Positions 8,839-30,162 are shown, numbered from the stretch's first letter. The stretch is 45,807 nucleotides of DNA from Promethearchaeota archaeon (GCA_016839765.1 JAEOTP010000088.1:1-45807); one strand, 5' to 3'. The notes: generated from the letters alone by a model not told the origin. Made by a program: numbers and translations.

Positions 8839-8859
8839 ACAAACAGGGATGGGAAATCT

Positions 8860-9108
8860 ATGATTGATTATTTTGTACTAATTGCTTCAATTAGTGATAT
8901 CTATTCTTTATTAAACTTACTTCTCATAATTTTTATTATAATCCCAATCTTTTTCCTAATTCTTATTTCGATTTGGGTTTATAAAGATGCTAAAAAAAGA
9001 GCTATGAATGCCTTTGTTTGGATCTTAATAATTTGGGTAATACCATTTTTTATTGGATTAATAGTTTACCTAAAACTTAGAGATCAGTACTCTACACCAA
9101 GAGTGTAA
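8860..9108 (+). CDS. Small membrane protein, PLDc_N-like (2 TM)
   Basis: IWVYKDAKKRAMNAFVWILIIWVIPFFIGLIVYL pattern. Confidence 0.65.
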   Translation: MIDYFVLIASISDIYSLLNLLLIIFIIIPIFFLILISIWVYKDAKKRAMNAFVWILIIWVIPFFIGLIVYLKLRDQYSTPRV

Positions 9109-9311
9109 TGAATTTTTTCCATCAAGTTTTTTTGATCCATCATCATTTTAATTAATACGGGTATCTATAATTAAATTAAGTGTAATATAAAAAGAAAAGC
9201 TAATTTAAAACGAAAAGTGCTAATTTTAGCTTCTCTATGATCCTCTGGCAATTTTAAGAATATATATAAATAACGAGAATTTAAATCAATTCATTTAACA
9301 TATTAAGAACG

Positions 9312-12406: not shown

Positions 12407-13348
12407 TTAAATGTTAAAACCCTCCTCAAAATCATCATATTCCTCTTCAAATCGCTTGATTTCTTCCTCTTTAAGCTTCTTTTTAAGCTCTTTACGCTCC
12501 TTATAAGTATGAGACTCATCATAACGTTTAATATACATTTTTTCGTATCTCTCTCTGAGCTTCTCAACGCTTTCTACTTGTCCAATTTTATCTTGTAATC
12601 CATCTTCAAAAAACCAGTTTCTCTTAAATTCTTTTGCGGGTATACCAACATAAATCCATCCATCTTTTAATTCTTGACCAACAGTAGTGACTGAGTTCGC
12701 TGCTAATACACTACGCCTACCAATATGGGTTCCTGGCATTACTATAGCATGAGACCCGATGCGAACTTCATCTTCTATTAAAGTTTTCCGAATGATTAGT
12801 AAATTTCCGATAATAACACTTGATTGGATAATTGCCCCTTGACCTACCACCACATTCTTTCCAAACTCCATAAATTCCGTGTCGCACCAACCTTCAAATA
12901 AGGAGTTAGAAAATTTTGTTTTAACTCCAAAAACCTTAAAACAGACATTATCTAAAAAGGGAAATGGAAACTTATGGGCAAGCCAAAAAGGAAACCGTTT
13001 AATAGTGCTTCTCATGCTCCAATAACGATAATCTTTATCAGAAGGGTGTCTAAGAAATGTACCCTCACGAGGTTTATGAACCGCATTAACAAATAAAAGA
13101 ATGATTTTAGCAAAAAAAATCGCAGAAAATACTGCTATAATATACATTCCAAAACATAAAAGAGGCAAAAAGGTATAAAAGTGAAGTGGTCTTTTATAAT
13201 CCCATAGCCACTGCCAATATGCCCAAAATATAAGTAAAAGTGGGATAATCGTCGCCCATATAATTATAATATAAAAGATTAAATATCTCTTTCTAACGAG
13301 AACCGTTGGTAAAAATGGTCCAACTCGCATAGTATTAGGTACAGACAT
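12407..13348 (-). CDS. 2-TM + left-handed beta-helix (hexapeptide repeat) acyltransferase-like protein, unit type C
   Basis: Two TMs, HKPREGTFLR..DKDYRYW, FGKNVVVGQGAII, IEDEVRIGSHAIVMPGTHIG, WIYVGIPAK; close paralog of 21883..22725. Confidence 0.8.
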   Translation of the reverse strand: MSVPNTMRVGPFLPTVLVRKRYLIFYIIIIWATIIPLLLIFWAYWQWLWDYKRPLHFYTFLPLLCFGMYIIAVFSAIFFAKIILLFVNAVHKPREGTFLRHPSDKDYRYWSMRSTIKRFPFWLAHKFPFPFLDNVCFKVFGVKTKFSNSLFEGWCDTEFMEFGKNVVVGQGAIIQSSVIIGNLLIIRKTLIEDEVRIGSHAIVMPGTHIGRRSVLAANSVTTVGQELKDGWIYVGIPAKEFKRNWFFEDGLQDKIGQVESVEKLRERYEKMYIKRYDESHTYKERKELKKKLKEEEIKRFEEEYDDFEEGFNI

Positions 13349-13354
13349 ACTTTC

Positions 13355-15232
13355 TCACTCATCTTTAGTTTTTACTAATTTCTTTTTTTTCTCATCAATA
13401 TTAACTTCATGTTCCACTTCAAACTTTTTCGCCCCATCCACATCTCTCTTCATAATTAAATCTCTTCTTTCTTCAGCATACTTATTTTCTTTTAGTTTTA
13501 TTACAGGAATACCAAAATAAATCCAACTGGGTTCAATAACTTGATTGAATAATGTGGTAGAGACAGCCCCTACAAAAGAATCGTGCCCGATTATTGTTCC
13601 TGGAGCAATTGTAGTATGACCTCCGACTAAAACGTAATCATCAAAAATCAATCTTTTTATTACCAAATATTTGCCCACAACCATAGAAGACATAACTGTA
13701 GCCCCCTGCCCTATTAAATTTTTTCTTCCAAAACTTATGAATTCACCGTCGCACCACGCATCATTAAGATGACTCGAAAAATCCATATTTACGCCAAACC
13801 ATTTGAATGCTAATGCATCAATCCAAGGAAGTGGTGAATTTCTCAGAAGCCATAGGGTGATTTTTCTTAGTTGAGTACGGAGCATCCAAAATTCATAATC
13901 AGTATCTCCTATTTCTGCCAAAAATGTGCCCTCTTTAGGTTTATGAATTAAATTTACGAGAATTAACAACAATTTACTAAATAGTAACACTCCCAAAATG
14001 AAAAGATATAACATAGAAATAAGAGATATGGGGAGAAATATAATAGAACTCAGTTTTACTCCCTCCATCGAATATCCATACCAATAAATTGCAACAAGAA
14101 GGCCACTTAACCAGAAAATTGGAAGATAAACCACTAAGAATTTGATATTAATTCTACTAATAGCACTACTCGTTGTAAAGTCTAAAGCCAAATCTTCACT
14201 CGTCAAAGTTGACACATCATTTTGTTCAATTTCTTCACTTATATCAATATCTCCCTTAAAACCCTCTTCTTCATCATCCTCTATTCTCTCTATTATTTCT
14301 TTTGCCTCTTCCTCTTTAACCTTACCGCTCTTCTTCTTTATAAATAGCTCTGGATTTTCGTTTTTCCTTAAATCTTCTTCGCTTAAATCTAGCCAACTCA
14401 TTGTTTTTTTCTTAAAAATCTTACGCATGGGAGCTCCAAAATAAAAATGACGATTTCCTTTAATAACACTATGTTTGACACCACAAGCTAAAGGCAACAT
14501 ATATGCATTATCAGATATCTCACATCCTGGACCAAGCTGATTCATAGCAGCAAGAGTAACATTATCTCCAAGACTAACCTTAAAATAATTAATATTTCCA
14601 AATATTCCAGATACAGTATGACTTGCTAACGAAGAATTAACACCAATATAGCAATTTTTACCAACATCGATAAATTTATCAGAGGCTACTGATTCTTCAA
14701 TAGTGGTTCCTTTTCCTATTTTACTTGTTCCGATAAAATTATAGAACCAGGTTGATAACCAAGGAAATAAACCTTTTCCAAATACATTTTTTCCATATTT
14801 TAATATAAAACTTCTTATATGGTAGTAATTAGCTGTTTTGGAACGAATATTCCTTGGAATAATTCCATCCTTGGAAGGTGAGATTTTTTCTGTTATTTTC
14901 CAGAAAATTTTGGTAATAATTCCAATAAGAAGTAATCTGACGTAATAACCAATAATTAGCACTAAAGGCATAGCTAATAATGCTATTAAGGGCTTAATTT
15001 CAGTAAATATTGCAAAAAAATTGGTAATTCTCAAAAAATAGGGTTCAAAAAATAGAAGAACATAAGAAAAGAATATAAAGCCTGGCACTAACCATGAACC
15101 ATAATAAATAATAAAAAACAAGATAATGTATACATGAAACTGGAGACTCTGTTCTTCCCTAACAACCTCTTCTTCAGTATTATTATCTGAATCTTCATTG
15201 TTTTTTGAATCTTCAGACATTTTAATCATCAA
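13355..15232 (-). CDS. Fused A-B protein: two tandem (2-TM + left-handed beta-helix) units
   Basis: N-half aligns to 23623..24528, C-half to 22725..23630, joined by a charged linker; hexapeptide repeats in both halves. Confidence 0.8.
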   Translation of the reverse strand: MMIKMSEDSKNNEDSDNNTEEEVVREEQSLQFHVYIILFFIIYYGSWLVPGFIFFSYVLLFFEPYFLRITNFFAIFTEIKPLIALLAMPLVLIIGYYVRLLLIGIITKIFWKITEKISPSKDGIIPRNIRSKTANYYHIRSFILKYGKNVFGKGLFPWLSTWFYNFIGTSKIGKGTTIEESVASDKFIDVGKNCYIGVNSSLASHTVSGIFGNINYFKVSLGDNVTLAAMNQLGPGCEISDNAYMLPLACGVKHSVIKGNRHFYFGAPMRKIFKKKTMSWLDLSEEDLRKNENPELFIKKKSGKVKEEEAKEIIERIEDDEEEGFKGDIDISEEIEQNDVSTLTSEDLALDFTTSSAISRINIKFLVVYLPIFWLSGLLVAIYWYGYSMEGVKLSSIIFLPISLISMLYLFILGVLLFSKLLLILVNLIHKPKEGTFLAEIGDTDYEFWMLRTQLRKITLWLLRNSPLPWIDALAFKWFGVNMDFSSHLNDAWCDGEFISFGRKNLIGQGATVMSSMVVGKYLVIKRLIFDDYVLVGGHTTIAPGTIIGHDSFVGAVSTTLFNQVIEPSWIYFGIPVIKLKENKYAEERRDLIMKRDVDGAKKFEVEHEVNIDEKKKKLVKTKDE

Positions 15233-15331
15233 TTTATAATATTGATATCTACTAGTAAAAATGTTTTTAATCTTTACTTAAAATTTCTATTTTATACTTT
15301 AATAGATATTTTTTTTATCTTTTAAAGTTAT

Positions 15332-15769
15332 ATGATTAACAATTTGTGTTTACTATCGGTATTAATCATGAATAAAATGAAGCACATCTGTAATGATTGC
15401 GGAAAATGTTGCCAAAAAACAGAAATGTTGTTATCAGAGCGAGATATTCGTTTAATTGAAGAAAAAATTTTAAACATCACTAGGTATGAATTTACCCAAT
15501 TGAACGAAAAAGGGATTTATCAATTAAAAAATAAAGATAACCACTGTGTCTTTTTAGATATTAAATCTAAATTGTGTAATATATATAAAATCAGGCCACA
15601 GGGTTGCAGATTCTATCCTACAATTTATGATAATGAAAAGAAAATTTGTATTTATGATGAAGAGTGCCCCAGAATCTCGCAATTTTATCTAAGTCATAAA
15701 AAATTTAAAAAAACATGTAACAATATTAAAAAATTTATAAAGAGAGACCTTAAGATAGAAATTACCTAA
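15332..15769 (+). CDS. YkgJ-family CxxCxxCC cysteine-cluster (putative Fe-S/Zn) protein
   Basis: CNDCGKCC, CVFLD, CNIYKIRPQGCRFYP. Confidence 0.85.
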   Translation: MINNLCLLSVLIMNKMKHICNDCGKCCQKTEMLLSERDIRLIEEKILNITRYEFTQLNEKGIYQLKNKDNHCVFLDIKSKLCNIYKIRPQGCRFYPTIYDNEKKICIYDEECPRISQFYLSHKKFKKTCNNIKKFIKRDLKIEIT

Positions 15770-15772
15770 GAA

Positions 15773-16780
15773 TTAAAATATAAGAATTGTTTTGATATGA
15801 TCTCTACTTTTTTCATATGACGTAAAAGCTTCATCAATCTTTTCTAAAGGAAATTGTTTTGAAATTAAATCCTTTACATGGATATTTCCTGATTTTAGCC
15901 CTTCTATTGCCTTATTAAATGGACCACATCTGCTACTATATATCGTAAGCTCCCGTATAACTATGTCTGTTAAATTCATCGGAGTATCTAATCCATGGGT
16001 ACTTTTCATATGAATTTTACCCCGCGTTCTACAAGAAGCAATTATATCTGAAATTGCATTTGGATTTCCAGTAGCATCCACAACTATATCGGTGCCTAAT
16101 CCATTTGTAATTTTTTTAATTTCATTAGGAATATTCTTTATTTTTAAGCGATTTATTAAATACTTCGCACCAAATTTTTTTGCTAATTCAAGTTTTTTAT
16201 CGGAACCATCAATTACGATTAATTCTAAATCCATTAATAGAGCAACCTGAACTATCAACAAACCTAATTTTCCAAGTCCAAAGATAGCTATATTTTTATC
16301 ATTATGGCTAAGGGGCATCGTTTCAAATATCTGATAGGCCGCAGCTAAAGGTTCAATGAAAGTTGCTTCATTAAAATCGATTGAGTCTGGTATCTCATGT
16401 ATTAAGTATGATTCTACAGCAATATATTCTGCAAATCCACCATTGATATCAATTCCTAATGCTTTTCTCGATAGACATTGAGTAAACATCTCTCTTTTGC
16501 AATAATAGCAATTAAAATCTATATTGCTGTTAATTTCGGACACAATCCTTTTTCCTAGCCATGAATTTTCCACCTCTTGTCCGACTTTTACAATCTCACC
16601 AGCAATTTCATGTCCTAAAATAAGTGGAGTTGGTGTTGGTAGAGTGCCTTTCACAATCGCTAAATCGGTACCACATATTCCTGTAGCTTTAACCTTAATT
16701 AATACCTGAGATTTAGTAAGTTCTGGGATTGGAACCTCTTTAACATTAATTTCCTTTCCATCAAATACAGCAGCTTTCAT
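15773..16780 (-). CDS. Zinc-dependent medium-chain alcohol/polyol dehydrogenase
   Basis: GICGTD, LGHEIAG, FIEPLAA, GLGKLG Rossmann motif. Confidence 0.9.
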   Translation of the reverse strand: MKAAVFDGKEINVKEVPIPELTKSQVLIKVKATGICGTDLAIVKGTLPTPTPLILGHEIAGEIVKVGQEVENSWLGKRIVSEINSNIDFNCYYCKREMFTQCLSRKALGIDINGGFAEYIAVESYLIHEIPDSIDFNEATFIEPLAAAYQIFETMPLSHNDKNIAIFGLGKLGLLIVQVALLMDLELIVIDGSDKKLELAKKFGAKYLINRLKIKNIPNEIKKITNGLGTDIVVDATGNPNAISDIIASCRTRGKIHMKSTHGLDTPMNLTDIVIRELTIYSSRCGPFNKAIEGLKSGNIHVKDLISKQFPLEKIDEAFTSYEKSRDHIKTILIF

Positions 16781-17009
16781 AAATAATTAAAATCAATTTA
16801 GAGTTTAATAAATATTAATAAAACATAATTAAATAAATATACAGAACTTAAAGGCAATTAAATAAAGCTATTTTAAAATTATAAGATCCAAGTAATTTAC
16901 ACAAATTATCAATAGCAATTTTATAAAAAATATTTATGAGTCCTAACCAGTTTTAATATATTTCTTGGTTCCTTTAATTCAAGTAACTAATTAACAAATA
17001 AATTGTGAT

Positions 17010-17552
17010 TTGATGAATAAAAAAGTTTTAATTTGGGAGATTATCGGCATAGTTTTTATTATATTTCTAGGTTCATTCATGCATTTTCTTTTTGAATTAA
17101 CAGGATCTTGGCCCCCTATTGGTGCTATAGCAGCAGTAAATGAAAGTACTTGGGAACACTTGAAATTAGGGTATTGGCCCTTGATGTTCTTTGCTTTAAT
17201 TGAATATAAGTTTATAAAAGAAGAGGTTAATAATTTTGCGTTCGCTAAATTTGTGGGCTCGTTATTGATTTTTGGAGTTATTATCATCTTTTTTTATTCT
17301 TATACAGCCATATTAGGAGAGGATTTATTAATACTTGACATATTTAGTTTTATCCTTTCAATAATCATAGCTCAATTAGTAAGTTATAAAATTTTAACAA
17401 TTAAAAGGCTAAAAAATGGTGTTTCTATCATATCATTGGTTGGACTCGTAATTCTGGGATTGTTATTCATATTATTCACCTATTTTCCTCCGCAGATATT
17501 CCTCTTTCAAGATCCTGTATCTGGTGGTTATGGAATAGTAGAACATCTCTAA
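17010..17552 (+). CDS. Conserved membrane protein (DUF6512-like)
   Basis: GSFMHFLFE, VNESTWEHLKL, TYFPP...FQDP motifs; ~5 TM. Confidence 0.7.
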   Translation: MMNKKVLIWEIIGIVFIIFLGSFMHFLFELTGSWPPIGAIAAVNESTWEHLKLGYWPLMFFALIEYKFIKEEVNNFAFAKFVGSLLIFGVIIIFFYSYTAILGEDLLILDIFSFILSIIIAQLVSYKILTIKRLKNGVSIISLVGLVILGLLFILFTYFPPQIFLFQDPVSGGYGIVEHL

Positions 17553-17666
17553 TTCAACTCAAATTTTTCTTATTTTACTTTTTTTTAACTAAATAATTAT
17601 AAACTCAATTTATAACATTCAAAAAATTAACATAATACAGGAAATTTATTTTAAAAAGTCGATTTT

Positions 17667-19322
17667 ATGAAATGTTTTGACTTTGATGAAAGCGTTCAAA
17701 AAGTATTAAATGATTCTTTTTCTGATATTGAACCTACAAACTGGAAGAGATGGTTAGAAATTTCATCCAGTGAAGAGTTTGAAGAATTATGTTTAAAAAA
17801 TTCTGGATTATCTTCTGTAAATGAAATTTTTAAAAGGGCAACTTCTGAAATTACCGATTCAAGAAGTTTTTCTATTAATTTGGAAAAATTTCTTTCTGAT
17901 TATAACCATTCTTATACTCCAATACTGTGTCATACGTCAGGAACAACTGATAGTAAGATTTCAGCTCTTAAGTGGTTCTTTATGTCAAAAAGTGTAACTC
18001 AAAAAAATTGGGCTCCAGGTATGCAAGCCATATTCGAATCAAGCGGATTAGATTCTAAATCTTCTGCTGTAATTTTTGTGCCTTCAAGAATTAAATTAGA
18101 TGGTTTACAATATTATGAAGGACAACCATATATTTCACTTTACTCATCTGAATTTTCTCAAAGGGTAATGCTTTCAATCATTAAACCAAAAACTTACACT
18201 TTTTACGAATATAAAAATTCTAAAAACTTAGATGTAATCTCTAAAATAATAGATATGGATGATATTAGAGTTGTTTCTGCTCCTGCTTTAACCATTTTAG
18301 GATGGGCTGATTTAGAAAAACTTACATTACGCGTACAAAAATCTCTTGATGATTTACCAGATTATAAAAATCATATATTAGAGAATCTCATTTCGATGAT
18401 TAAAAAAGAAGGTATACAAAAAGCATCAAAATTAATTCAAGAAAAGCTTTCAGACAAATTATCTAAGGCGACAATAATATTTAGTATAAGTTCCCTTTCA
18501 GAGCAGAACTGGGCTTTAATAAGAAGGTTTATGAAATGGGAAAAGGGAAGAGAAAAATTTACAAATCTTTATGTAGCATCTGAGATTGGACCTTTCGCAT
18601 CCAGTATCTCTAAAGGGGACTTCGAAATATCTCGTCAAAATAGGTTGTATGTTTTTCCTTTGACATTGCCTGTTATAGAACACCATAATAAAAAACAATT
18701 AATTTCTCGAGCTTCAAACACGACGGGCAAGCTATTAGTGTCAAGAATGGATGGTTCTACCCCCTTAATTAATATCGATTTAGGCGATATTATTACTGTA
18801 AAAGAAAATGAGGGATTACCGCAAATTGATGGAAAAATCATACGATCTAGTTTTAAATTAAAATATGATCTTAAATTATCTGAAAAACTTGCTATACCTT
18901 TCGATTATAACATTTATGCTGGTGATTTTTTCTCTCTAAATGAATTTACAATAAATCAACCAAGAAACTTAATTAATTGCTTAAAAAATGATTGTAATTT
19001 GGAAGTTGATGCGTTATTATTATTAAAGAATAATAAAAAAACCTGGGATTTAGTTTTTCCATCTAATATTCAAGAAAATTGTATGAAAGATAAGAAATTA
19101 ATAGAATTAATTTCTTCATGTCCGCATCAGGAGGAGCTCACTCAAGGAATAATCAACAATTTAATCAATATCTATTTTATTGAAGATCAGCCGGTTGACT
19201 TCTTAGCTACGCGATCAGAAATATTGAATAAAGTTCGTGAAGGACAGGCACCTAAAGGCATATTGAAAAAATGGCCTTTATATGTAATTATTCCCAAAAA
19301 CGATGAGAATAATCTTATCTAA
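17667..19322 (+). CDS. Divergent adenylate-forming enzyme (GH3/PaaK-like ANL fold)
   Basis: HTSGTT P-loop-like motif, YVASEIG (YxxSE) motif, IDLGDII (xxGD) motif in the expected order. Confidence 0.6.
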   Translation: MKCFDFDESVQKVLNDSFSDIEPTNWKRWLEISSSEEFEELCLKNSGLSSVNEIFKRATSEITDSRSFSINLEKFLSDYNHSYTPILCHTSGTTDSKISALKWFFMSKSVTQKNWAPGMQAIFESSGLDSKSSAVIFVPSRIKLDGLQYYEGQPYISLYSSEFSQRVMLSIIKPKTYTFYEYKNSKNLDVISKIIDMDDIRVVSAPALTILGWADLEKLTLRVQKSLDDLPDYKNHILENLISMIKKEGIQKASKLIQEKLSDKLSKATIIFSISSLSEQNWALIRRFMKWEKGREKFTNLYVASEIGPFASSISKGDFEISRQNRLYVFPLTLPVIEHHNKKQLISRASNTTGKLLVSRMDGSTPLINIDLGDIITVKENEGLPQIDGKIIRSSFKLKYDLKLSEKLAIPFDYNIYAGDFFSLNEFTINQPRNLINCLKNDCNLEVDALLLLKNNKKTWDLVFPSNIQENCMKDKKLIELISSCPHQEELTQGIINNLINIYFIEDQPVDFLATRSEILNKVREGQAPKGILKKWPLYVIIPKNDENNLI

Positions 19323-19344
19323 AAAAAAAAAGGAACAACATAAT

Positions 19345-19746
19345 TTATTGCCAAACGGCTAAAATTAAACCCGCGATTATGAATCCAATCAAGTAAAACC
19401 CATATTCTAAAAGAAAAAGCTTTACTCCTCTATCGTTAAAATTATTTTGATTAATTGCAATAGTTGCAACAAATCCTACCCATAAGAGGATACTTATGAT
19501 TAATGCTGATACAATATCATTCATATTAGTGAGATCCATGATAACCTCAATCATTAGAACAGTAATAAAGCTCGTTGGAATCATTATTATCGTATCTCTA
19601 ATAATTTTTGATTTGGGTTCACTCTCTTTACCGACTAATTTTAGCCACATATTCCCGAAGGCAAAAGGAAAATACCAGAAAAAATGAATCAGAAAATAAA
19701 TTATTGCAACCACAACAACAGCTAACCAGTTAATCATCAAAGCCAT
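19345..19746 (-). CDS. DUF1761-family membrane protein
   Basis: INWLAVVVVA...WY.P.AFG..W pattern; 4 TM. Confidence 0.75.
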   Translation of the reverse strand: MALMINWLAVVVVAIIYFLIHFFWYFPFAFGNMWLKLVGKESEPKSKIIRDTIIMIPTSFITVLMIEVIMDLTNMNDIVSALIISILLWVGFVATIAINQNNFNDRGVKLFLLEYGFYLIGFIIAGLILAVWQ

Positions 19747-19851
19747 ATTTTGTCACTTCTTAAATTAATAATTTGTAATTAAAAGGAATATAAATGAACA
19801 ATATTTATTTCTTATTTGTTTAAATTATAAATTAAAATTAATGGGTTTTCA

Positions 19852-20325
19852 ATGAAAGATAAATTCAATTTAGTGGGGACTAAAATAAAACAATTTAAAT
19901 TACCAAACTCAAGAGGCGAAACAAATAGTATTCAGGACTTCTTGGGTCAAAGCGTAGTAATTGTTTTATTCCGGAGTAAAAATTGACCCTATGCTAAAGC
20001 ACATGCAGGAAAACTCGGTGTTGATTTCGATAAATTCAAAGAATACAACGCAATATTATATACGATCTTACCAGATGACCTTGAAAGTGCTAAGAATTTT
20101 GAAGCCAATTTTGCGAAAAATAAATTTCCAATTTATTATGATGCCAAAAAAAAGGTGAATAAAATGTTAAAACAGGAAGTAAAACCTTTAAAACTGGGAA
20201 GGATGCCAGCACTTCTCATAATCGACAAACAAGGGATTATAAAATATGCATATTACAGTGATTCAATGAGTGATATACCAGACAATGAGGAAATTTTTGA
20301 AGTACTCAAAAATCTTAATAAATAA
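19852..20325 (+). CDS. Peroxiredoxin-like (AhpC/TSA, thioredoxin fold) protein with in-frame TGA at codon 45; probable selenoprotein
   Basis: Manual translation: MKDKFNLVGTKIKQFKLPNSRGETNSIQDFLGQSVVIVLFRSKN-TGA-PYAKAHAGKL...KFPIYYD...GRMPALLIIDKQGIIKYAYYSDSMSDIPDNEEIFEVLKNLNK*; TGA at 19984-19986; 157 residues. Confidence 0.8.
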
Positions 20326-20443
20326 ATCCGATTTGGTTCGAATAAGTTATGAAAAATGATTGAATTTTATTCGATTAAGTTAGCCACACTTTACCAAATC
20401 AATCTTCTTTTATTTAGAAATCAAAAAAAAGAGCTAAATATTT

Positions 20444-20920
20444 TTAAATAGATTTTAGCCCTATTGGTGGTCCTACTTGTTTAAATTTATAAATAAGTTG
20501 ACCTTCTGTGGTAAACATATCCCAACCTTGATCTTTTTCAAAACCATGCGCAGATAAAAAATTTTCTGAAAATTTGTTCCTTGCGGATTGTACCATTTGA
20601 TTAATAACTTCTTTTTTTATTTGATTATTTTCAACTAATTCCAATTTGCCTTGCATTGAAATAAAATAATAACTATTAAGATCTGGTTCAAATTTTTCTA
20701 TTGAAATGCATACATTAGGATTATTTGAAAGGATATCCTTCTTTTTGCCATAATCAGTAAAATGAAAATATAAAGTATCATCAATGAAAACATATTGGAA
20801 CGGTGAGATATATGGATATTCATCATCTATGAATGCAATTCTACATAAATTTTGAGAATTGATTGCTTCTTTTATTTCTTTTTCATTCATTTTTGGTAAT
20901 TTAATAATTCTAATACACAT
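20444..20920 (-). CDS. Pyridoxamine 5'-phosphate oxidase-like FMN-binding protein (NimA/Pyridox_ox_2)
   Basis: CRIAF...YPYISP..Y...LYFH...GKK.DILS.NPNVC; start moved to ATG 20920 to avoid overlap with uvsE. Confidence 0.8.
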   Translation of the reverse strand: MCIRIIKLPKMNEKEIKEAINSQNLCRIAFIDDEYPYISPFQYVFIDDTLYFHFTDYGKKKDILSNNPNVCISIEKFEPDLNSYYFISMQGKLELVENNQIKKEVINQMVQSARNKFSENFLSAHGFEKDQGWDMFTTEGQLIYKFKQVGPPIGLKSI

Positions 20921-20933
20921 CACTAACTTAATT

Positions 20934-21830
20934 TTAATTGGATAAAAAACGTGGATCATATTCAAGAAGTTTTATTGCCTTTAAAGCACTCCGTTCTTTA
21001 TCTTTTATTTCTAACATAAGGTCAAAATTATAATTTTTCGTCTTATTAATAAAGGTTTTAAAATGTTCGAGTTGAATATTATCAGCATGACTCGGTTGTC
21101 TTTTTATTTGATGTTGAGAGCTATAGTGTACGATAGGCAAGCCATCTCGTTTATTCCACGTTTGTGTGAATTTGCTAAATACCTCTTCAAAAATTTCACC
21201 TGTATTTAAACATTCATGATGATAAACATCAAAAACAATAGGAATAAAAATTTCTTCATAAATTTCCAGACAATCTGCTAAATTAAAACTTTTATCATCA
21301 TTTTCAATAACATATCGTTTTTTAATTTTAGCTGAAAGCTTATTATATCTTTTGCTGAATCTTTTTTTACTTCCCTTTTTATCACCATAAACACCTCCAA
21401 TATGGGTCATAATTTTAGCTGTGCAATCCAAATTCATTAAATCTAAAACATCAGCATGATATTCCAACTCCTTTATACTTGTATTAACAACTTTATCGTT
21501 TTTAGAATTTAACACCGTATATTGACCAGGGTGCATAGAGATTCTCATATTCTGCTTTTTTATAAAGTTCCCTATTTCATTAAACTTTTCTTTGAAATAA
21601 TCTTGCCATTCAAATTTCATAATAGGATGAGAACCAAATGGTATTAAATCAGATGTAATTCTAAAGAAAAAGATTTTGTTATTTTTATTATATTCAAGAA
21701 TTTCTTGTAAACAATCTAAATTTCCATCTATACTTTCAATTAATCTTTCTTCGGAATAATTTTTCAAACGAAAAGTTCTACTACTTTTACAAGTTAATGC
21801 AAGATTTATGCAAGGATAACCGATCTTCAT
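20934..21830 (-). CDS. uvsE: UV DNA damage repair endonuclease UvsE
   Basis: KIGYPCIN, FRITSDLIPFGSHP, RISMHPGQYTVLNS, IENDD, VFDVYHH, VHYS, MLEIKDKE. Confidence 0.95.
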   Translation of the reverse strand: MKIGYPCINLALTCKSSRTFRLKNYSEERLIESIDGNLDCLQEILEYNKNNKIFFFRITSDLIPFGSHPIMKFEWQDYFKEKFNEIGNFIKKQNMRISMHPGQYTVLNSKNDKVVNTSIKELEYHADVLDLMNLDCTAKIMTHIGGVYGDKKGSKKRFSKRYNKLSAKIKKRYVIENDDKSFNLADCLEIYEEIFIPIVFDVYHHECLNTGEIFEEVFSKFTQTWNKRDGLPIVHYSSQHQIKRQPSHADNIQLEHFKTFINKTKNYNFDLMLEIKDKERSALKAIKLLEYDPRFLSN

Positions 21831-21882
21831 TTTACTTCAATCTATAAATTAATTAATCAAAAATAGAAATACTTTAATTCAT

Positions 21883-22725
21883 TCACACTTGTTTATCTTT
21901 TCGTCTGGTATAGAGTTCTTTGTATTTTTTGCGTAGTTCCTCGATATCATGCTCTTGTTCAGCTATTATTTCTTCTAAACCATCTTCAAAGAACACATCT
22001 CTTTTGTACTTTTTTGCTGGTGCACCGAGATAAACCCATCCTTCTTCTAATTCTTGGCCAACAGTTGTAAGAGAACTTGCAGCAAGAACAGAATCCTTCT
22101 TCATATGAGTTCCCGGCATAACAACTGAATGAGCACCTATTCTAACATTATCTTCGATTATTGTTTTTCTAATTATAAATAGATTTCCAATAATAACTGC
22201 AGATTGAATAACACTCGCTTGACCAACTACAACATTCTTTCCAAATTCAATGAATTCTGTGTCAACCCAGCCTTCAAATAGCGAGTTTGAAAATTGTGTT
22301 TTAACCCCAAACAATTTAAAGCATATATTATCTAAGAAAGGTAATGGAAATTTGTGTGCTATCCATGCTGGCCACTTTTTTATTGTATTTCTAATACTCC
22401 AATATCTATAATCTTTATTCGAGGGGGTCCTAAGAAAGACTCCTTCTCTGGGTTTATGAAAGAGATTAACAATAATAAGTAGGATTTTGGTAAAAAAAAG
22501 GGATACAAATAATAATGAAATATATATTACAAATATGAGAAGAGGAAGAAAAATTATGAAATGAATAAACTTATTGTAATATAATAAGTTCCAATACCAC
22601 CAAAATTCAAATTGGATAACAAAAATGCTAATCCAAATTTGGAATAGATAAAAAATTAAATATTTTTTTTTCACTAAAACATTTGATGTAAAAGGACCAG
22701 CTTTAAGATATGCGGGTACAGACAT
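21883..22725 (-). CDS. 2-TM + left-handed beta-helix protein, unit type C
   Basis: Paralog of 12407..13348 (MSVP...GPF, AHKFPxPFLDN, FSNSLFEGWxDTEF); start overlaps the upstream stop. Confidence 0.8.
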   Translation of the reverse strand: MSVPAYLKAGPFTSNVLVKKKYLIFYLFQIWISIFVIQFEFWWYWNLLYYNKFIHFIIFLPLLIFVIYISLLFVSLFFTKILLIIVNLFHKPREGVFLRTPSNKDYRYWSIRNTIKKWPAWIAHKFPLPFLDNICFKLFGVKTQFSNSLFEGWVDTEFIEFGKNVVVGQASVIQSAVIIGNLFIIRKTIIEDNVRIGAHSVVMPGTHMKKDSVLAASSLTTVGQELEEGWVYLGAPAKKYKRDVFFEDGLEEIIAEQEHDIEELRKKYKELYTRRKDKQV

Positions 22726-23630
22726 TATAATTCTCCCTCCTTATTGTTATTTACTAGTTGTTTCTTATCTTCATCAATATTTACATCTTGTTGAATTTCA
22801 TAGGTTATTTCTTCTTCAACATCTTTGATAAATATTTTATCTCGTCTTTGTTCCGCAAATTTATTTGGCTTATATTTCATGGCAGGGAGGCCGACATATA
22901 TCCAGCCAGGTTCAATAAATTGGTTAAAATTTGTATTAGTAAACGCACCTGTTACCGAATCAACTCCCATGAACGTACCAGGTGCTATATTAGATACCCC
23001 TCCTGCAACTGTATAATCCCCAAATATGACCCTCTTTATGATTAAGTACTTTCCAATAACCATTGAACTCATAACTACGCATCCTTGACCAATTGTAACA
23101 TTTCTTCCAAAATCAATGAAATCAGTATCTACCCATGCATCTTGCAGGTGGCTTGAGAAATCTATTTTAACTCCAAACCATCTAAATCCCCACATTACAA
23201 TCCAAGGTAGTGGCCCATTATTCATAAGCCATAATGCCAACTTCTTTAATTGAACTCGTAGTCTCCAAAACTCAAAATCTTTATCTCCTTTTTCCGCCCT
23301 AAAGACACCTTCCCGAGGTTTATATACCATATTAACGATTAATAGAAATGCCTTGCTAAAAATAGCAATTCCAAAGATAAATATAAAGTATAAAATAAAT
23401 AACCAAAACGGTAGGAGAAACATGGTTATAATCCAATTATCAATAAGAGTAGCGACATCAAAAAAAACAGCAACTGCCATGTATCCACTTACCCATAGAA
23501 TTGGAATATATATTGCCAGAAATTTGATACTTATTTTACTAATCGCACTACTTGTTACAAAATCTATTGTGTAATCTACCCTTGTTTTATTGGATTTATT
23601 ATTGTTGTTTGTGGAATCATCACTATCCAT
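22725..23630 (-). CDS. 2-TM + left-handed beta-helix protein, unit type B
   Basis: DFVTSSAISKISIKFL, DFSSHLQDAWVD, VNIDEDKK match the C-halves of both fused proteins. Confidence 0.8.
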   Translation of the reverse strand: MDSDDSTNNNNKSNKTRVDYTIDFVTSSAISKISIKFLAIYIPILWVSGYMAVAVFFDVATLIDNWIITMFLLPFWLFILYFIFIFGIAIFSKAFLLIVNMVYKPREGVFRAEKGDKDFEFWRLRVQLKKLALWLMNNGPLPWIVMWGFRWFGVKIDFSSHLQDAWVDTDFIDFGRNVTIGQGCVVMSSMVIGKYLIIKRVIFGDYTVAGGVSNIAPGTFMGVDSVTGAFTNTNFNQFIEPGWIYVGLPAMKYKPNKFAEQRRDKIFIKDVEEEITYEIQQDVNIDEDKKQLVNNNKEGEL

Positions 23631-24528
23631 TTATCTTACCTCCACCTTTTTTTGGATCTTTCTTTTCTTTTTCCCTTTTAAGCTGTTCTGCTTTCTCAAA
23701 ATCTTCCTCAGATATTTTTAAGTAATCCATTAATCTTTTTTTAAAGATTCTACGTAATGGAGCTCCAAAATAATAATTATCTCCTTTTAAAAGATTATGT
23801 TTGGTTGCACCCGTCATAGGCAATAGCCAAGAATGATCTTTTAGTTCTGAACCAGGTCCAACACAATTAAAAGCAGCAGCTGTTACATTATCTCCAATTT
23901 TAACTCTAAAATAAGAAATATTACCGAATATACCTTCCACAGCATGAGAACTAATTGCTCCATTAACGCCAAAATAACAATTTTTTCCAATGGTTACAAA
24001 TCTATCAGCACCCACATTTTCTTCTAGAGTTGTGCCTTTTCCTATTTTATTAGCTCCAATGAAATTATAAAGCCAATTTATTAACCATGGAAACGGACCT
24101 CTTATAACAGCATTTTTTGGATATTTAATTACAAAACTACGTATGTGGTAGTAATTTAAAGTCTTACTTGGAATATTTCGAGGTAATATTCCGCTTTTTG
24201 AAGGAGATATCTTTTCAGTGGTCCTCCAAATCCCCCTCGTAATAAGTCCTACAAAGAAAATATGGATCAAATAGCATAAGACTATTACCAAGGGCATGAA
24301 AATTGAAGCTAAGAGTGGTTCTAATTGCGTGAAAAGTAATAGAAAACTGCTGGTATCTAAAAAATATGGTAAATAAAAAAGCATGACATAAACCATAAAT
24401 ATAATCGCGGGGATTAGAAAAGACCCGAAATAGATAATGAAAAATAAAAATAAATACCAATGAAACTGTAAATTAATTTCTTCCTTTATGATTTCGTTAC
24501 TGGTACTACTTTGAGGCGAATTTTCCAT
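23623..24528 (-). CDS. 2-TM + left-handed beta-helix protein, unit type A
   Basis: SPSKSGILPRNI, YYHIRSF, SSHAVEGIFGNISYF, YYFGAPLRRIF match the N-halves of both fused proteins. Confidence 0.8.
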   Translation of the reverse strand: MENSPQSSTSNEIIKEEINLQFHWYLFLFFIIYFGSFLIPAIIFMVYVMLFYLPYFLDTSSFLLLFTQLEPLLASIFMPLVIVLCYLIHIFFVGLITRGIWRTTEKISPSKSGILPRNIPSKTLNYYHIRSFVIKYPKNAVIRGPFPWLINWLYNFIGANKIGKGTTLEENVGADRFVTIGKNCYFGVNGAISSHAVEGIFGNISYFRVKIGDNVTAAAFNCVGPGSELKDHSWLLPMTGATKHNLLKGDNYYFGAPLRRIFKKRLMDYLKISEEDFEKAEQLKREKEKKDPKKGGGKING

Positions 24529-24712
24529 CTCCTACTTCATCAATGCTTTTTTAGTTAATATGTAATAAGTAGAATTAATTTTGTTATTTTTACTGGTTTT
24601 TTAATTATAATGGTTATTAAATTTAAAGATTTTCAAACTCTTGATTTTAGGAATAATATAAATATAAAAAATAAAAGTTTAAAGATTATAAGTTATTAAT
24701 TTTTAAAATTCA

Positions 24713-25546
24713 TTATGTTTTCTTTTCTTTTTTAGAAAACCAAGGGATAAATGAGCTAGTTTTTCTTTTGTATGCAGCATACTCTTCATTCCCTTCAAAT
24801 CTTTTATCTAGAAGTTTTACACCAGATACCTTAATTATTTGAAATGTAATATAAGCTGGTCCTATAAATGTTAAAAAGCCAAATGGAACTGCTAAAGCGA
24901 TTATAAAAAGACCCCACCATTGAGTTACTTCTCCAAAATAGTTTGGATGCATAGAGTATTTCCATACACTCTTCGTCATAATTTTTCCTTGATTTGCTGG
25001 TTCTTGTAGGAACTTATAAAGAGAAAAGTCTGCTATAGTTTCAAAGAGAAATCCTATTAGCCATATAATAGCTCCCAACCATAAAGTTATTCCTCCAAAG
25101 TCTAATAGACTAACTACAGGAGGATTTTCACTTATATTTGTAAACCAAACTGGAATATCAACTAAAAAAACGATAATTCCTTGAAATAAATATACTTTAA
25201 AGAAACTTTTCAAAGCTACATTTGTTTTCCATCTTTCTCGCATTGCTTTATAACGATAATCTTCAGGTTTTCCTCTATTCCTAATATATACATAGCTTGC
25301 TAATCTTATTGCCCAAACTAAAACTAGGCTGGTTACTATAACTTGACGAATGCAAAAAGTTGATGTTAGTATTATATTTACGATTAAACTAGTTGTAGAC
25401 ACCACAAAATAAGCAGGACCATAAAAAATGTCCATAATTGCATTATTCTTCTTTGCGGTTCCAACAATGAAAGCAATAAATATGTAAATAAACAGGGCTA
25501 GAGCTGAATATCCAATTAATATTAACATAGTTTCAATACTTGTCAT
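24713..25546 (-). CDS. DUF1295 / steroid 5-alpha-reductase-like membrane protein
   Basis: EDYRY, FETIAD, WKYSMHPNYFGE...WWG, YAAYKRKTSSFIPW. Confidence 0.9.
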   Translation of the reverse strand: MTSIETMLILIGYSALALFIYIFIAFIVGTAKKNNAIMDIFYGPAYFVVSTTSLIVNIILTSTFCIRQVIVTSLVLVWAIRLASYVYIRNRGKPEDYRYKAMRERWKTNVALKSFFKVYLFQGIIVFLVDIPVWFTNISENPPVVSLLDFGGITLWLGAIIWLIGFLFETIADFSLYKFLQEPANQGKIMTKSVWKYSMHPNYFGEVTQWWGLFIIALAVPFGFLTFIGPAYITFQIIKVSGVKLLDKRFEGNEEYAAYKRKTSSFIPWFSKKEKKT

Positions 25547-25646
25547 AATAACACACGATTAAACTGTAAAATTATATCAAATAGTCAGAAAATACGAGAA
25601 TATTTATAGTTTTTATTTATTAATTAAAGATTTTTATATTTAGGCT

Positions 25647-27473
25647 CTAAAGCTTTTCCTTTTTATCTTCTTCAATATTCACTTCATGTTGAATATCAAA
25701 TTTTATTTCTTTATCGACATCTTTTTTTACAATGATATCCCGCCTTGATTCAGCATACTTATTTGGCTTTAATTTGATTGCTGGAATTCCGATATAAATA
25801 AAGCCAGGTTCTAATATTTGGTTATAAGTTGTAGTTGAGATGGCTCCTATCATAGTATCTCTCCCCACAATAGTCCCTGGAGCAATAGTTGAATGTCCTC
25901 CAATAAGAGCATAATCATCAAGAAATATTTTAGAAATTACGAGATACTTTCCTATTACCATTGAACTCATCAATGTTGCACCCTGACCTACAACAACTTT
26001 TCTTCCCAAGTATAAGAATTCTCCATCACACCATGCATCATATAGATAACTCGAAAAATCCATTTTTATTCCAAACCATTTGAAAGCAAGGACATCTGCC
26101 CATGGAATGGGGCAATTTCTCATGAGCCATAAGACTATTTTTTTTAATTCAGTGCGTAGCATCCAAAATTCATAATCAGTATCTCCTATTTCTGCCAGAA
26201 ATGTACCCTCTTTTGGTTTATGAAGTAAATTAACCAGGATTAGAAAAAGTTTACTATATAAGAAACATCCTAGGATAAAAATAAAATATAATACAAATAA
26301 TATAAATGGTAAAAAAAAAGTAAACATAATCAGATTTTTAACGAAAAACGTGTAGGTATAAAACAACACTGCTACTTGTAGCCCGCTTATCCAAAAAATG
26401 GGTAGATAAACTGCTAGAAATTTTATATTTATTCGACTTATTGCTGAGCTAGTAGTAAAATCAAGATTGTAATCTACATTTTCATATTCAATTTCATTAA
26501 TTTGTTCATTTAGTTTTAGTTGGGTTGAATCAACTTCTTTTTTTTCTTGCTTTTTTTTAATTTTTTTATTCTCCTTATTAGGTTTCTTCATAACTTCTAT
26601 GTTTTCTAAAGAAATTTTATTTTGCTCTAAGTCCTCAGGAGTTAAACCTAAATAGTTCATAACTTTTTTATCAAAGATTTTCCTTAAAGGAATACCAAAA
26701 TAATAATGGTGGTCTCCCTTTACAACACTGTGTTTAGTTGCGGACGCTAAAGGTAATAGATAGGAATTACTATGAATCATTGTACCAGGTGCAATTTGAT
26801 TACTTCCTGCAATAGTAATATTATCGCCTACTTGTATTTGAAAATATGATATATTTCCCCATACTCCGTCTATTAAATGTGTAGCTAAGGTAGAATTGAC
26901 TCCGATATAACAATTTTTTCCGACAATTGCAAACTTTTCGTTACCTACAGATTCTTCAAAAGAGGTTCCTTTTCCAATAACCATTGAACCTATATAATTG
27001 TATAACCAATTCGATAACCATGGAAATAATCCTTTAACAAACATATTTTTAGGATACTTCATAAGGAATGATCTTATATGATAAAATTTCTCCGTTTTAC
27101 TTTTAATATTTCGGGGGATTATACCATTTTTAGATGGTGATTTACTTTCAGTATATGCCCATATCACACGTGTGATTAAGGCAATGAAATATAATCTAAT
27201 AAGATAACATACAATTAAAACGAGTGGCATTGTAAGTAAAGCCATCAGGGGTTCGATTTCTGTAAAAATGGCGATAAAATTTGAAATTTCCAGGAAGTTA
27301 GGTAAAAAATATAAGAAAAAGTACAACATAAAAACTGCGATTGGCACTAAAAATGAGCCTAGATAGTTTGTTAATAATATCATAAATGACAAAATCAGGG
27401 AGTAACTCATTTCTTCCCTGAAAACTTCAGGTTTTAAACTCTTGGATGCTTTACTATTTTTTTTCGATTCCAT
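25647..27473 (-). CDS. Fused A-B protein: two tandem (2-TM + left-handed beta-helix) units
   Basis: Full-length paralog of 13355..15232 with Lys-rich linker. Confidence 0.8.
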   Translation of the reverse strand: MESKKNSKASKSLKPEVFREEMSYSLILSFMILLTNYLGSFLVPIAVFMLYFFLYFLPNFLEISNFIAIFTEIEPLMALLTMPLVLIVCYLIRLYFIALITRVIWAYTESKSPSKNGIIPRNIKSKTEKFYHIRSFLMKYPKNMFVKGLFPWLSNWLYNYIGSMVIGKGTSFEESVGNEKFAIVGKNCYIGVNSTLATHLIDGVWGNISYFQIQVGDNITIAGSNQIAPGTMIHSNSYLLPLASATKHSVVKGDHHYYFGIPLRKIFDKKVMNYLGLTPEDLEQNKISLENIEVMKKPNKENKKIKKKQEKKEVDSTQLKLNEQINEIEYENVDYNLDFTTSSAISRINIKFLAVYLPIFWISGLQVAVLFYTYTFFVKNLIMFTFFLPFILFVLYFIFILGCFLYSKLFLILVNLLHKPKEGTFLAEIGDTDYEFWMLRTELKKIVLWLMRNCPIPWADVLAFKWFGIKMDFSSYLYDAWCDGEFLYLGRKVVVGQGATLMSSMVIGKYLVISKIFLDDYALIGGHSTIAPGTIVGRDTMIGAISTTTYNQILEPGFIYIGIPAIKLKPNKYAESRRDIIVKKDVDKEIKFDIQHEVNIEEDKKEKL

Positions 27474-27927
27474 TTGGAATAAAATCCTTATATAACTTTA
27501 TTACTTAATTAAGATGCTATGTAATTTGTACTTTTACAATGTTTGAATCATTTTTCAAATTACTAAGAATCATATAATAATTATCATAAATTAAAAATCT
27601 TATTTACAATTTTTCTTTAAATATTTTGTGTAAATATAGAAATACGAGCATTTACGACAAAATTGCGACAAAATAATAAATAAAACATAAATTACAAAAC
27701 AGTTAAAAATTAAAGGTTAAAATATCATGTATATCATAGAGCTCTTAAAGCAGTTTATATCAAGCATAAGAAAATTTAATCAATCTCTTAATAAAAACTA
27801 TACAATAATTTTATATTATATTAAATCATTAAGTTCTAGTTAGGTTAAGGCAGAATAAACTAAATTATTGTAATAAAAGCCGATAAAATTTAAATAATAA
27901 TTGTTTTCATAATATTGGAGGAATAGA

Positions 27928-30162
27928 ATGACAGATAATTCTTTTTCATTGATAGATTTGTTTCCAAAATATGTAATCAATTCTAAAGGTGAAAAGAAAA
28001 AATTTGAAGAGACAAGTATCGCCAAAGTGTTAAATAAGGAAACTGGACTTGATATGCATATTGCTGAGAAAGTTGCTGAAGATGTAATTAGAAAAATAAT
28101 CGGCCTTGGAATAGATGAGATTAGAACTAATTATATTAGGGAATTAGTTTGTGTCGAACTAACCCAACGTGGATTAAATAAATATAGAAATCTATTTGCA
28201 CGTGCAATTAATTTAGAAAATATTTCTTTCAAACTTGATGAAAAATTTATTAAACAATTTAAAGGAAAACAACCTAATTGGGGACCTTTAGGTTACATCA
28301 CCTATAAAAGGACTTATGCGCGAATTATAGAAAGGAAAAATCGAAAAGAAGAATTTTGGGAAACAATTCAAAGAGTTGTTGAGGGCTGTTATTCTATTCA
28401 AAAAGAACATTGTATCAAATTAAGTTTGCCATGGAGCGATGAAAAAGCTCAGAGATCGGCTCAGAAAATGTTTGAAAAGATTTGGTATTTTAAATTCTTA
28501 CCCCCCGGACGGGGTTTATGGATGATGGGCACAGAATTTATTGCAAGGCATGGTTCTATGTCGTTAAACAATTGTGGTTTTGCGTCTACAGAAGATATCA
28601 ATCGAAAATATTCGAAAGCTTTCGAATTTGTTATGGATGCTCTAATGTTAGGAGTTGGAGTTGGATTTGATACAAAGGGTGCGGGAAAGATTACAATTAA
28701 GAAACCAAAAGAAAATCATTTTAACTTTCAAATACCTGATAGTAGAGAAGGATGGGTTGAGGCACTCAAATTGACCTTGGAGGCATATTTTCTAGGAAAA
28801 CAAATGCCCAATTATGACTTCTCTCTCGTTCGTCCATCTGGACGCCCCATACGAGGCTTTGGGGGTGTAGCATCAGGACCTGATCCACTAAAACATATGT
28901 TAGAGGATATAAGAAAACTATTAGATAATAGAGTGAACCAATCATTAACTTCTGTTGATATTGTAGATATTATGAATCTTATTGGGAAATGTGTGGTTGC
29001 TGGAAATGTTAGACGGAGTGCAGAGATCGCATTAGGAGATCCGACAGATTTAGAATTTGTTACATGTAAACAGGATGAAAAAAAATTGTATTCTCATAGA
29101 TGGGCAAGCAATAACAGTATTTTTGCAATAAAAGGGTTAGACTATTCTTTTATAGCCGATCAAATAGTTGTAAATGGAGAACCTGGAATTTTTTGGCTTG
29201 AAAATGCAAAAGCATATGGAAGGATGGGAGAACCTCCAGATCATAAAGACAAAAAGGCGGCTGGAGTAAATCCTTGTGGAGAACAAACCTTAGAATCATT
29301 TGAACTTTGCTGTCTTGTGGAGACTTTTCCATCGAATCATGATTCTTATGAAGAATTCCAAGAAACATTAAAATATGCGTATCTTTATTCTAAATCAGTA
29401 ACACTAGTAAATACACATTGGCCTGAAACTAATGCTGTAATGCTCAAAAATAGACGTATGGGAATCTCTCAAACAGGAATAATTGAGGCTTTTATAAAAC
29501 ATGGAAGGAGAAAAGTGCTTGATTGGTGTGATCTAGCATATACATATTTAAAAGACTTAGATGAGGAGTATTCAAATTGGTTATGTATTCCAAAATCAAT
29601 TAAATTAACAACTGTAAAACCAAGTGGTACTGTAAGTCTACTTCCTGGAGTGCCCCCAGGAATTCATTATCCACATTCTGAATATTATATCCGCAGAATA
29701 CGGATATCAAAAAACTCTGATTTGATTGAACATATTAAAGATGCTGGATATAAAGTAGAGGATGACTCTTATTCTCCTAATACTGTAGTTGCTGAATTTC
29801 CTGTCCATGAAGAGTATTTTGATCGTTCTAAAAAGGAAGTTTCAATCTGGGAGCAAGTAGCTAATGCTATAGATTATCAAAAATATTGGTCTGATAACCA
29901 AGTATCCATAACGGTAACTTTCAAACCTGAAGAAAAAAATGAAGTTAAACGTGTATTGGAATTTTGTGAAGATAAATTAAAAAGTGTTAGCTTCCTACCA
30001 ATAAAAGAGCATGGATATAAGCAACCGCCCTACGAAGAAATTACAGAAGAGAGATACAGACAATTATTAGCAAATTTAAAGCCCCTTGATTTAGATGAAA
30101 CAAAAGATCGTGCCATAGGAGAAAAGTTCTGTGACACCGAGTTTTGTGAAATTCGTTTTTAG
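27928..30162 (+). CDS. nrdJ: Class II (adenosylcobalamin-dependent) ribonucleotide reductase with N-terminal ATP-cone
   Basis: YKRTYAR, PPGRGLW, VVAGNVRRSAEI, catalytic NPCGEQ, TTVKPSGTVS, C-terminal CDTEFC; N-terminal VINSKGEKKKFE..I ATP-cone. Confidence 0.93.
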   Translation: MTDNSFSLIDLFPKYVINSKGEKKKFEETSIAKVLNKETGLDMHIAEKVAEDVIRKIIGLGIDEIRTNYIRELVCVELTQRGLNKYRNLFARAINLENISFKLDEKFIKQFKGKQPNWGPLGYITYKRTYARIIERKNRKEEFWETIQRVVEGCYSIQKEHCIKLSLPWSDEKAQRSAQKMFEKIWYFKFLPPGRGLWMMGTEFIARHGSMSLNNCGFASTEDINRKYSKAFEFVMDALMLGVGVGFDTKGAGKITIKKPKENHFNFQIPDSREGWVEALKLTLEAYFLGKQMPNYDFSLVRPSGRPIRGFGGVASGPDPLKHMLEDIRKLLDNRVNQSLTSVDIVDIMNLIGKCVVAGNVRRSAEIALGDPTDLEFVTCKQDEKKLYSHRWASNNSIFAIKGLDYSFIADQIVVNGEPGIFWLENAKAYGRMGEPPDHKDKKAAGVNPCGEQTLESFELCCLVETFPSNHDSYEEFQETLKYAYLYSKSVTLVNTHWPETNAVMLKNRRMGISQTGIIEAFIKHGRRKVLDWCDLAYTYLKDLDEEYSNWLCIPKSIKLTTVKPSGTVSLLPGVPPGIHYPHSEYYIRRIRISKNSDLIEHIKDAGYKVEDDSYSPNTVVAEFPVHEEYFDRSKKEVSIWEQVANAIDYQKYWSDNQVSITVTFKPEEKNEVKRVLEFCEDKLKSVSFLPIKEHGYKQPPYEEITEERYRQLLANLKPLDLDETKDRAIGEKFCDTEFCEIRF

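Follow-up and report, generated by a model that had tools for sequence, protein, structure and literature searches.

Gene layout and unit types

The window, which is the whole stretch of 45,807 nucleotides analysed here, belongs to a Lokiarchaeia (Promethearchaeota) genome that is 96% complete. Six ORFs were found on its minus strand, encoding eight units composed of two TM helices and a left-handed beta-helix (LbH), and these units were of three types, designated A, B and C. AB1 (13355-15232) is a fusion of a catalytic-type unit A (residues ∼20-310) and a His-less unit B (residues ∼345-620). It comprises 625 aa when read from TTG. The database gene call P0121 begins instead with the ATG at 15220 (621 aa), which is the probable true start. 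C1 (12407-13348, 313 aa), a His-less unit C that closed the ring in the complex model described below, lies 6 nt downstream of AB1. In another cassette the three units are encoded separately: the free-standing catalytic-type unit A2 (23623-24528) overlaps by 8 nt with the His-less unit B2 (22725-23630), and the stop of B2 overlaps by 1 nt with the start of the His-less unit C2 (21883-22725). AB3 (25647-27473) is an intact and conserved A-B fusion without a C gene of its own, which presumably uses C1 or C2 as partner.

In each unit a hydrophobic hairpin of two helices precedes the hexapeptide repeats, and each carries a P-x-x-G...Y/F-W/H-x-R helix, a P-F/L-P-W/F motif, the hexapeptide coils and a Y-x-G-x-P end. 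The identities were ∼50-58% between A units, 53-67% between B units, 62% between C units and 34-43% between B and C, and those of A with B or C were 17-27%. In a quick unit tree, in which the units of Pls (epsilon-poly-L-lysine synthetase) formed long branches of unusual composition, the three types appeared as separate clades, and AB3 clustered with the AB1-type fusions. The ORF coordinates, the unit identities and the clades confirmed the six minus-strand genes, eight units and three types that had been described in a sequence-only reading of this DNA. Its statement that no adenylation or carrier domain is fused to the system also held for every one of the six genes. The dN/dS values against orthologues were ∼0.02-0.13 in all six genes, the lone AB3 included, with dS near saturation in the more distant pairs; all six genes are under purifying selection.

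Three further units were located elsewhere in the same genome, a pair D+E on contig C59 and a single unit F on contig C33. D (with His) and E (without His) are encoded on the minus strand at C59:27522-28373 and 26781-27518 (L001:9523-10365 and 8782-9519), directly upstream of a tandem metallophosphoesterase, and the pair was also observed in genomes of family f2. F is a lone His-bearing unit on the minus strand at C33:135519-136331 (L002:9520-10332), with an NDP-forming acyl-CoA synthetase-like gene and a glycerophosphodiester phosphodiesterase-like gene as neighbours. This phosphodiesterase recurs close to F at three f2 loci, together with a GlpA-like oxidoreductase triad (recognised by eye in the sequence), and this neighbourhood is a weak hint at glycerol-backbone substrates.

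Neighbouring genes

The most constant neighbour of the cassettes was a CxxCxxCC (PF03692) gene, which in the window is divergent from AB1 (15332-15769, plus strand) and was beside the cassettes in 21 of 21 genus-level loci. It was not seen in loci of other families, and the linkage may be inherited synteny only. A gene for a DUF1295 protein (steroid 5-alpha-reductase-like membrane protein; 24713-25546, minus strand) between AB3 and A2 was shared with close relatives only (4/21 loci). The neighbours conserved across the compared loci, namely the CxxCxxCC protein, a Zn-dehydrogenase, a class II ribonucleotide reductase, an AlaX-like protein, a C-N hydrolase and, in f2, GatD/E-like genes, made up no coherent pathway and gave no pointer to the substrate. 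The ribonucleotide reductase of the window (27928-30162) is a monomeric class II enzyme, and those of relatives have 922-1242 aa (L031, L032, L041, L042) and possibly contain inteins. A tandem winged-helix protein is encoded downstream of C1 (10888-12144), an adjacency that was not kept in relatives.

A histidine confined to unit A

Among 190 aligned units, a histidine in the LbH was present in 48/48 A, 4/4 A' and 8/8 A0 units, and in none of the 37 B, 35 C and 7 BC0 units. It follows the S/T of the third coil in A units, and B and C have Ser or Ala in that position. In the AB fusions, all 65 had His205 in A and all 65 had Ser at the same position of B. No other LbH histidine was invariant. 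The predicted catalytic His205 of unit A1 lies in a LASH motif (codon 14618-14620, minus strand), and the corresponding codons are 23946-23944 in A2 (His195) and 26879-26877 in AB3. The best solved match of the profile of His-bearing units was E. coli galactoside acetyltransferase (GAT), with an E-value of 6.7e-21, and the conserved histidine fell on GAT His115. It was reported that the H115A mutation of GAT abolishes ∼90% of the activity, and that the site is located between subunits (PMC12775004). In one Streptomyces Pls sequence the same column is occupied by Trp in C1, Phe in C2 and His in C3, the last within a QTH motif. That the catalytic histidine is confined to A was absent from the sequence-only reading. 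The alignments thus give good support to the view that one unit in three, A, would be catalytic and that B and C would be non-catalytic.

The histidine pattern also bears on whether the system is a transferase at all. The gamma-carbonic-anhydrases of mitochondrial complex I (CA/CAL) form an LbH heterotrimer that includes pseudo-enzyme subunits, and gamma-carbonic anhydrase requires three His zinc ligands. The units might accordingly be regarded as a structural or regulatory LbH ring, or as a heterotrimer of this kind, because two of the three units are pseudo-enzymes and because gamma-carbonic anhydrase and complex I CA/CAL subunits were among the sequence matches. We consider this very unlikely, since the single invariant His, found in A only, sits exactly at the acetyltransferase catalytic position, and since respiratory genes were not found nearby. 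Unlike complex I CA/CAL, the present system has integral membrane hairpins, no zinc-binding His triad and no link to a respiratory complex. Gamma-carbonic anhydrase itself was ruled out as a candidate, because there was no zinc His triad and the one invariant LbH His was in A only.

Probable assembly of A, B and C units

By a library-wide profile search, a natural single-chain C-A-B protein of 797 aa (MHA1292881.1) was found in Promethearchaeota genomes (P0242, P0392), as was a second type that is N-terminally short (P0243). The predicted fold of the C-A-B fusion (pLDDT 79, pTM 0.81) had sugar O-acetyltransferases as its top shape matches in the PDB by Foldseek, and it matched Pls-type proteins in the Atlas with a TM of ∼0.5 over 470-485 residues. 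Complex modelling, which covered AB1+C1 only, gave a closed ring with an ipSAE of 0.83, against 0.00 for the best control; the mark reached by AB1+C1 is also attained by 58 of 80 solved pairs and by 2 of 110 mismatched pairs. The PDB is rich in LbH trimers, so likeness may account for part of the AB1+C1 score. At least 80% of the contacts were in agreement between runs, and the partner pLDDT was at least 81. In the model C contacts A and B alike, TM helices included. According to the contact list, the C loop after the His position meets A and the corresponding B loop meets C, and His205 of A was absent from the A-C contacts, an absence that the modelling tool flagged as uncertain. We infer from the model that the single site may be located at the A-B interface with His205 facing B, which would explain A-B as the usual fusion. 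The K/R counts favoured a position of the LbH on the cytoplasmic side, and this charge bias suggests that the LbH domains face the cytoplasm. Neither sequence search nor Foldseek returned a solved structure of a full TM-LbH ring.

The splitting of the His among the units, the same split in Pls, the natural C-A-B fusion and the closed-ring model together make it highly probable that A, B and C would form a heterotrimer with one active site, and there is good support for its homology to the terminal region of Pls/PosA. An obligate A:B:C heterotrimer had been proposed from the sequence. The natural fusion and the AB1+C1 model spoke for the heterotrimer, but not for the word obligate, as family f2 has an A gene with one B/C-ancestral gene. 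The two-gene systems (A0+BC0 and D+E), whose stoichiometry may differ, and some f2/f4 loci where two His-bearing units are paired, were counted against the best explanation.

It could instead be supposed that A, B and C are paralogues which each form a homotrimer independently and are simply encoded in one cluster, as the scattered single units of other Asgard families must work alone and F occurs as a lone unit in the present genome. But B and C were His-less in every case and never occurred without an A-type gene in loci uncut by a contig end; moreover, A-B, C-A and C-A-B fusions exist, and the AB+C model passes where the controls gave 0.00. Independent homotrimers are therefore hardly credible.

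Distribution and evolution

The family was present in 41/41 genomes searched of the order (Lokiarchaeia), often in 8-17 copies. The cassettes in 20 genus loci took the forms (A)1-3-B-C and AB-C. Two or three A genes preceded a single B and C in 6 of these loci, a tandem B or C in none, which fits shared scaffolds with exchangeable catalytic subunits; the expansion into several isoforms, as suggested by the sequence-only reading, was thereby supported. A lone AB was also observed in G010 and G018. The units had been described as always in the order A, B, C. This did not hold, since a paralogous locus carries a C'A' fusion followed by B', which is a cyclic permutation, and since the natural fusion runs C-A-B. 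It is the cyclic order that is conserved, together with the ratio of one His-bearing to two His-less units, where three units are encoded together.

In family f2, which includes two single-contig genomes, there are five units, A0+BC0, D+E and F, and a separate B is absent. BC0 branches before the B/C split in the tree. The B/C-ancestral subunit of f2 (L048:7684-8988; orthologues in L050, L052 and L057) is extended at its C-terminus by 100-160 aa that match no Pfam family. Other Asgard families contain one to six scattered single units, all His-bearing, so that the A-B-C synteny proposed as a check across Asgard genomes gave way to lone units in other lineages. Given the two-gene form of f2 and these lone units, the A:B:C form with its three types is an elaboration, specific to one lineage, of a single membrane unit bearing the His.

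Bacterial three-unit relatives with one His and without A/T domains were also found, located by glycosyltransferase/sugar-nucleotide genes or by FemAB-like/EamA genes, so that a form without carrier is not restricted to archaea. The His is in the middle unit in P0345 (L120:6001-8043), P0360 (L121:3511-5562), P0364 and P0376, which belong to glycosylation-type operons. One bacterial three-unit protein is fused to a short-chain dehydrogenase.

Relationship to Pls/PosA

It was reported that the repeats of Pls/PosA consist of a TM hairpin, helices and an LbH with a beta-hairpin insert, three times over, and that in an AlphaFold model of the PosA terminus three LbH sit on top of six helices in a threefold pseudo-symmetric arrangement (PMC10522769). 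The present system likewise has three tandem units of a TM pair and an LbH, here across genes and in the natural fusion P0242. As in Pls, one unit is His-bearing and two are His-less, in the cyclic order of the His unit and then two His-less units. Pairwise profile alignments (hhalign) of the units with the Pls terminus were at 95-98%. On the basis of the shared His column, these alignments and the common architecture, the homology to the Pls terminal region is real though distant, and the resemblance pointed out in the sequence-only reading was borne out, in shape (TM ∼0.5) as well as in profile and His pattern. In contrast to Pls, the chain is split over one to three genes with <20% identity, the His unit is first (or middle) in gene order rather than last, the catalytic subunit is multiplied into isoforms, and adenylation and carrier domains are absent. 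The best match to TIGR02353 (Pls) was 44.8 bits per protein against a cut-off of 423, and 0 of 8 genome matches were over the cut-off. Although the system is a relative of the Pls/PosA terminal region and would work like it, the lack of A/T domains and the scores far below the cut-off show that it is no Pls/PosA synthetase.

Neither a carrier (PCP/ACP, PF00550) nor a phosphopantetheinyl transferase (PF01648) was found in the 96% complete genome, which makes Pls chemistry with a PCP-bound amino acid unlikely. Of the two activities that had been put forward, acyl transferase or polymerase, the second lost ground on the same account. A Pls-type carrier supplied in trans was considered as a candidate, and none was found in the genome. 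The genome's AMP-binding enzymes matched the Pls A domain with E-values of 1e-19 or weaker, and none of them lies in the window.

A Pls-like polymerase or amide ligase without carrier is conceivable, in which activated amino or organic acids would be joined to a polymer or lipo-amide that passes through the bundle of six TM helices. The donors would be CoA thioesters or adenylates from a free-standing enzyme, or aminoacyl-tRNA. One such enzyme might be the GH3-like adenylate-forming enzyme encoded between the cassettes (17667-19322, plus strand), a single-copy gene with a TSGT loop and no Pfam or NCBIfam match. It lies within the locus here and in 7 relatives, and an AlaX-like editing gene was found near 13 of 20 related loci, though it is absent from this window. 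The Pls-like architecture with one His-bearing and two His-less units (PMC10522769) and the Atlas matches would agree with such an activity. However, the GH3-like gene was patchy in Lokiarchaeia, being present in 13/24 genus genomes and 0/11 f2 genomes, all of which have LbH units, and in 5 genomes this gene and the cassette were on separate contigs. In addition, the lone His-bearing units of other Asgard have no adjoining ligases in the flanks read. Together with the missing PF00550 and PF01648, these observations render a carrier-free polymerase improbable. As an obligatory "missing adenylation domain", the GH3-like gene was ruled out by its distribution.

Relationship to acetyltransferases

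YvoF (NF058585) was the best NCBIfam match of the A units, with 27-59 bits against a cut-off of 300, and the E-value for AB1 was 3e-16. YvoF is the heptaprenylglyceryl/archaeol O-acetyltransferase of Bacillus and Halobacteria. Its substrates in Bacillus and Haloferax are glycerol-ether lipids (PMC9179154), and the Bacillus enzyme loads a lipid acetyl carrier (PMC12345273). Like the present system, it is an LbH acetyltransferase of the MAT/GAT group that works at the membrane (PMC9179154, PMC12345273). YvoF is a single, membrane-associated protein of ∼170-190 aa, whereas the system here is integral and heteromeric; as the matches were also below the cut-off, the system is not YvoF proper. The sequence-only reading knew of no characterised archaeal system like this. 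This is still so for a TM heterotrimer, but an LbH lipid acetyltransferase has been characterised in an archaeon, namely YvoF of Haloferax, which is the closest functional precedent (PMC9179154).

The best YvoF match in the genome (70 bits) was a four-TM plus LbH protein on contig C32 (3376-4461, minus strand), whose gene clusters with glycosyltransferase and radical SAM genes; it is a candidate lipid or glycolipid acetyltransferase. One protein encoded on contig C61 (1794-2960, minus strand) has two PlsC-type acyltransferase domains, a bacterial-type lipid acyltransferase in an archaeon.

The soluble enzymes GAT (LacA) and MAT share with the system the LbH fold, the His at the position of GAT His115 (A units only), a C-terminal G-x-P motif and an inter-subunit site. 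Unlike it, they are homotrimers with three sites and without the TM hairpin, and A lacks the Trp of the NVWIG motif. The units also matched the WcaF, HpsU, WbbJ, Vat and CatB profiles weakly, so a membrane-anchored acetyltransferase of WcaF/HpsU/Vat type was considered, which would N- or O-acetylate membrane proteins, exported glycans or small hydrophobic toxins. The expansion of A isoforms would fit a range of substrates of this sort. Glycan-synthesis genes were not conserved around the Loki loci, however, and retention of the family in every genome of the order searched looks more like housekeeping than detoxification. A non-lipid acceptor is thus unlikely, if still the foremost of the alternatives to lipid-directed acyl transfer.

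Proposed mechanism

The lack of a carrier in the genome, the patchy GH3-like gene, YvoF as best match, a GGGP-synthase-family gene in the genome and the charge bias all pointed to an acyl-CoA-dependent transferase acting on a membrane-bound acceptor, i.e. a lipid or lipid-linked glycan, which we regard as somewhat better than an even chance. Because the GGGP-synthase-family gene is present, glycerol-ether acceptors can exist. In the proposed mechanism, six TM helices would form a pseudo-threefold membrane ring that carries three cytoplasmic left-handed beta-helices. Unit A would give the single general-base His, and B and C, having lost theirs, would provide the opposite wall of the site and the scaffold. 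Acyl-CoA (acetyl or longer) would bind between adjacent beta-helices, in the manner known from galactoside/maltose acetyltransferases and from YvoF. The His of A would then deprotonate the hydroxyl (or amine) of an acceptor held in the membrane, most likely a glycerol-ether lipid, a lipid head group or a lipid-linked sugar, to which the acyl group would be transferred. The products of extra A or AB genes would make use of common B/C or C subunits, and the resulting isoforms probably have different specificities. The CoA donor, the lipid-type acceptor and the sharing of subunits are all deduced rather than observed.

A bolder proposal is that Lokiarchaeia possess a combinatorial membrane synthase, whose exchangeable A subunits pick different long-chain acyl or aminoacyl donors for hybrid ester/ether lipids or for a carrier-free polyamide. 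No such biosynthetic route is known in archaea, and the Pls polymerase domain would have been recruited from this free-standing form. We rate this as a long shot.

Significance

No paper describing the system, on TIGR02353 or on an Asgard LbH acyltransferase was found in the literature. The polymerisation domain of Pls/PosA was reported to have no solved structure (PMC10522769), and none was found here by sequence or Foldseek. The system is a conserved, undescribed enzyme architecture related to the known Pls/PosA terminus and LbH acetyltransferases, and its chemistry is probably ordinary acyl transfer. The Asgard series of lone His units, two-gene pairs, A:B:C rings and a single-chain fusion offers a testable handle on the Pls/PosA domain. 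It predicts that Pls acts as a single domain whose only active site lies at the QTH His of C3. The split genes permit reconstitution subunit by subunit, whereas the fused Pls does not. The family was present in every one of the 41 Lokiarchaeia genomes searched, and this points to a novel kind of membrane modification among archaea that are related to the eukaryotic ancestor.
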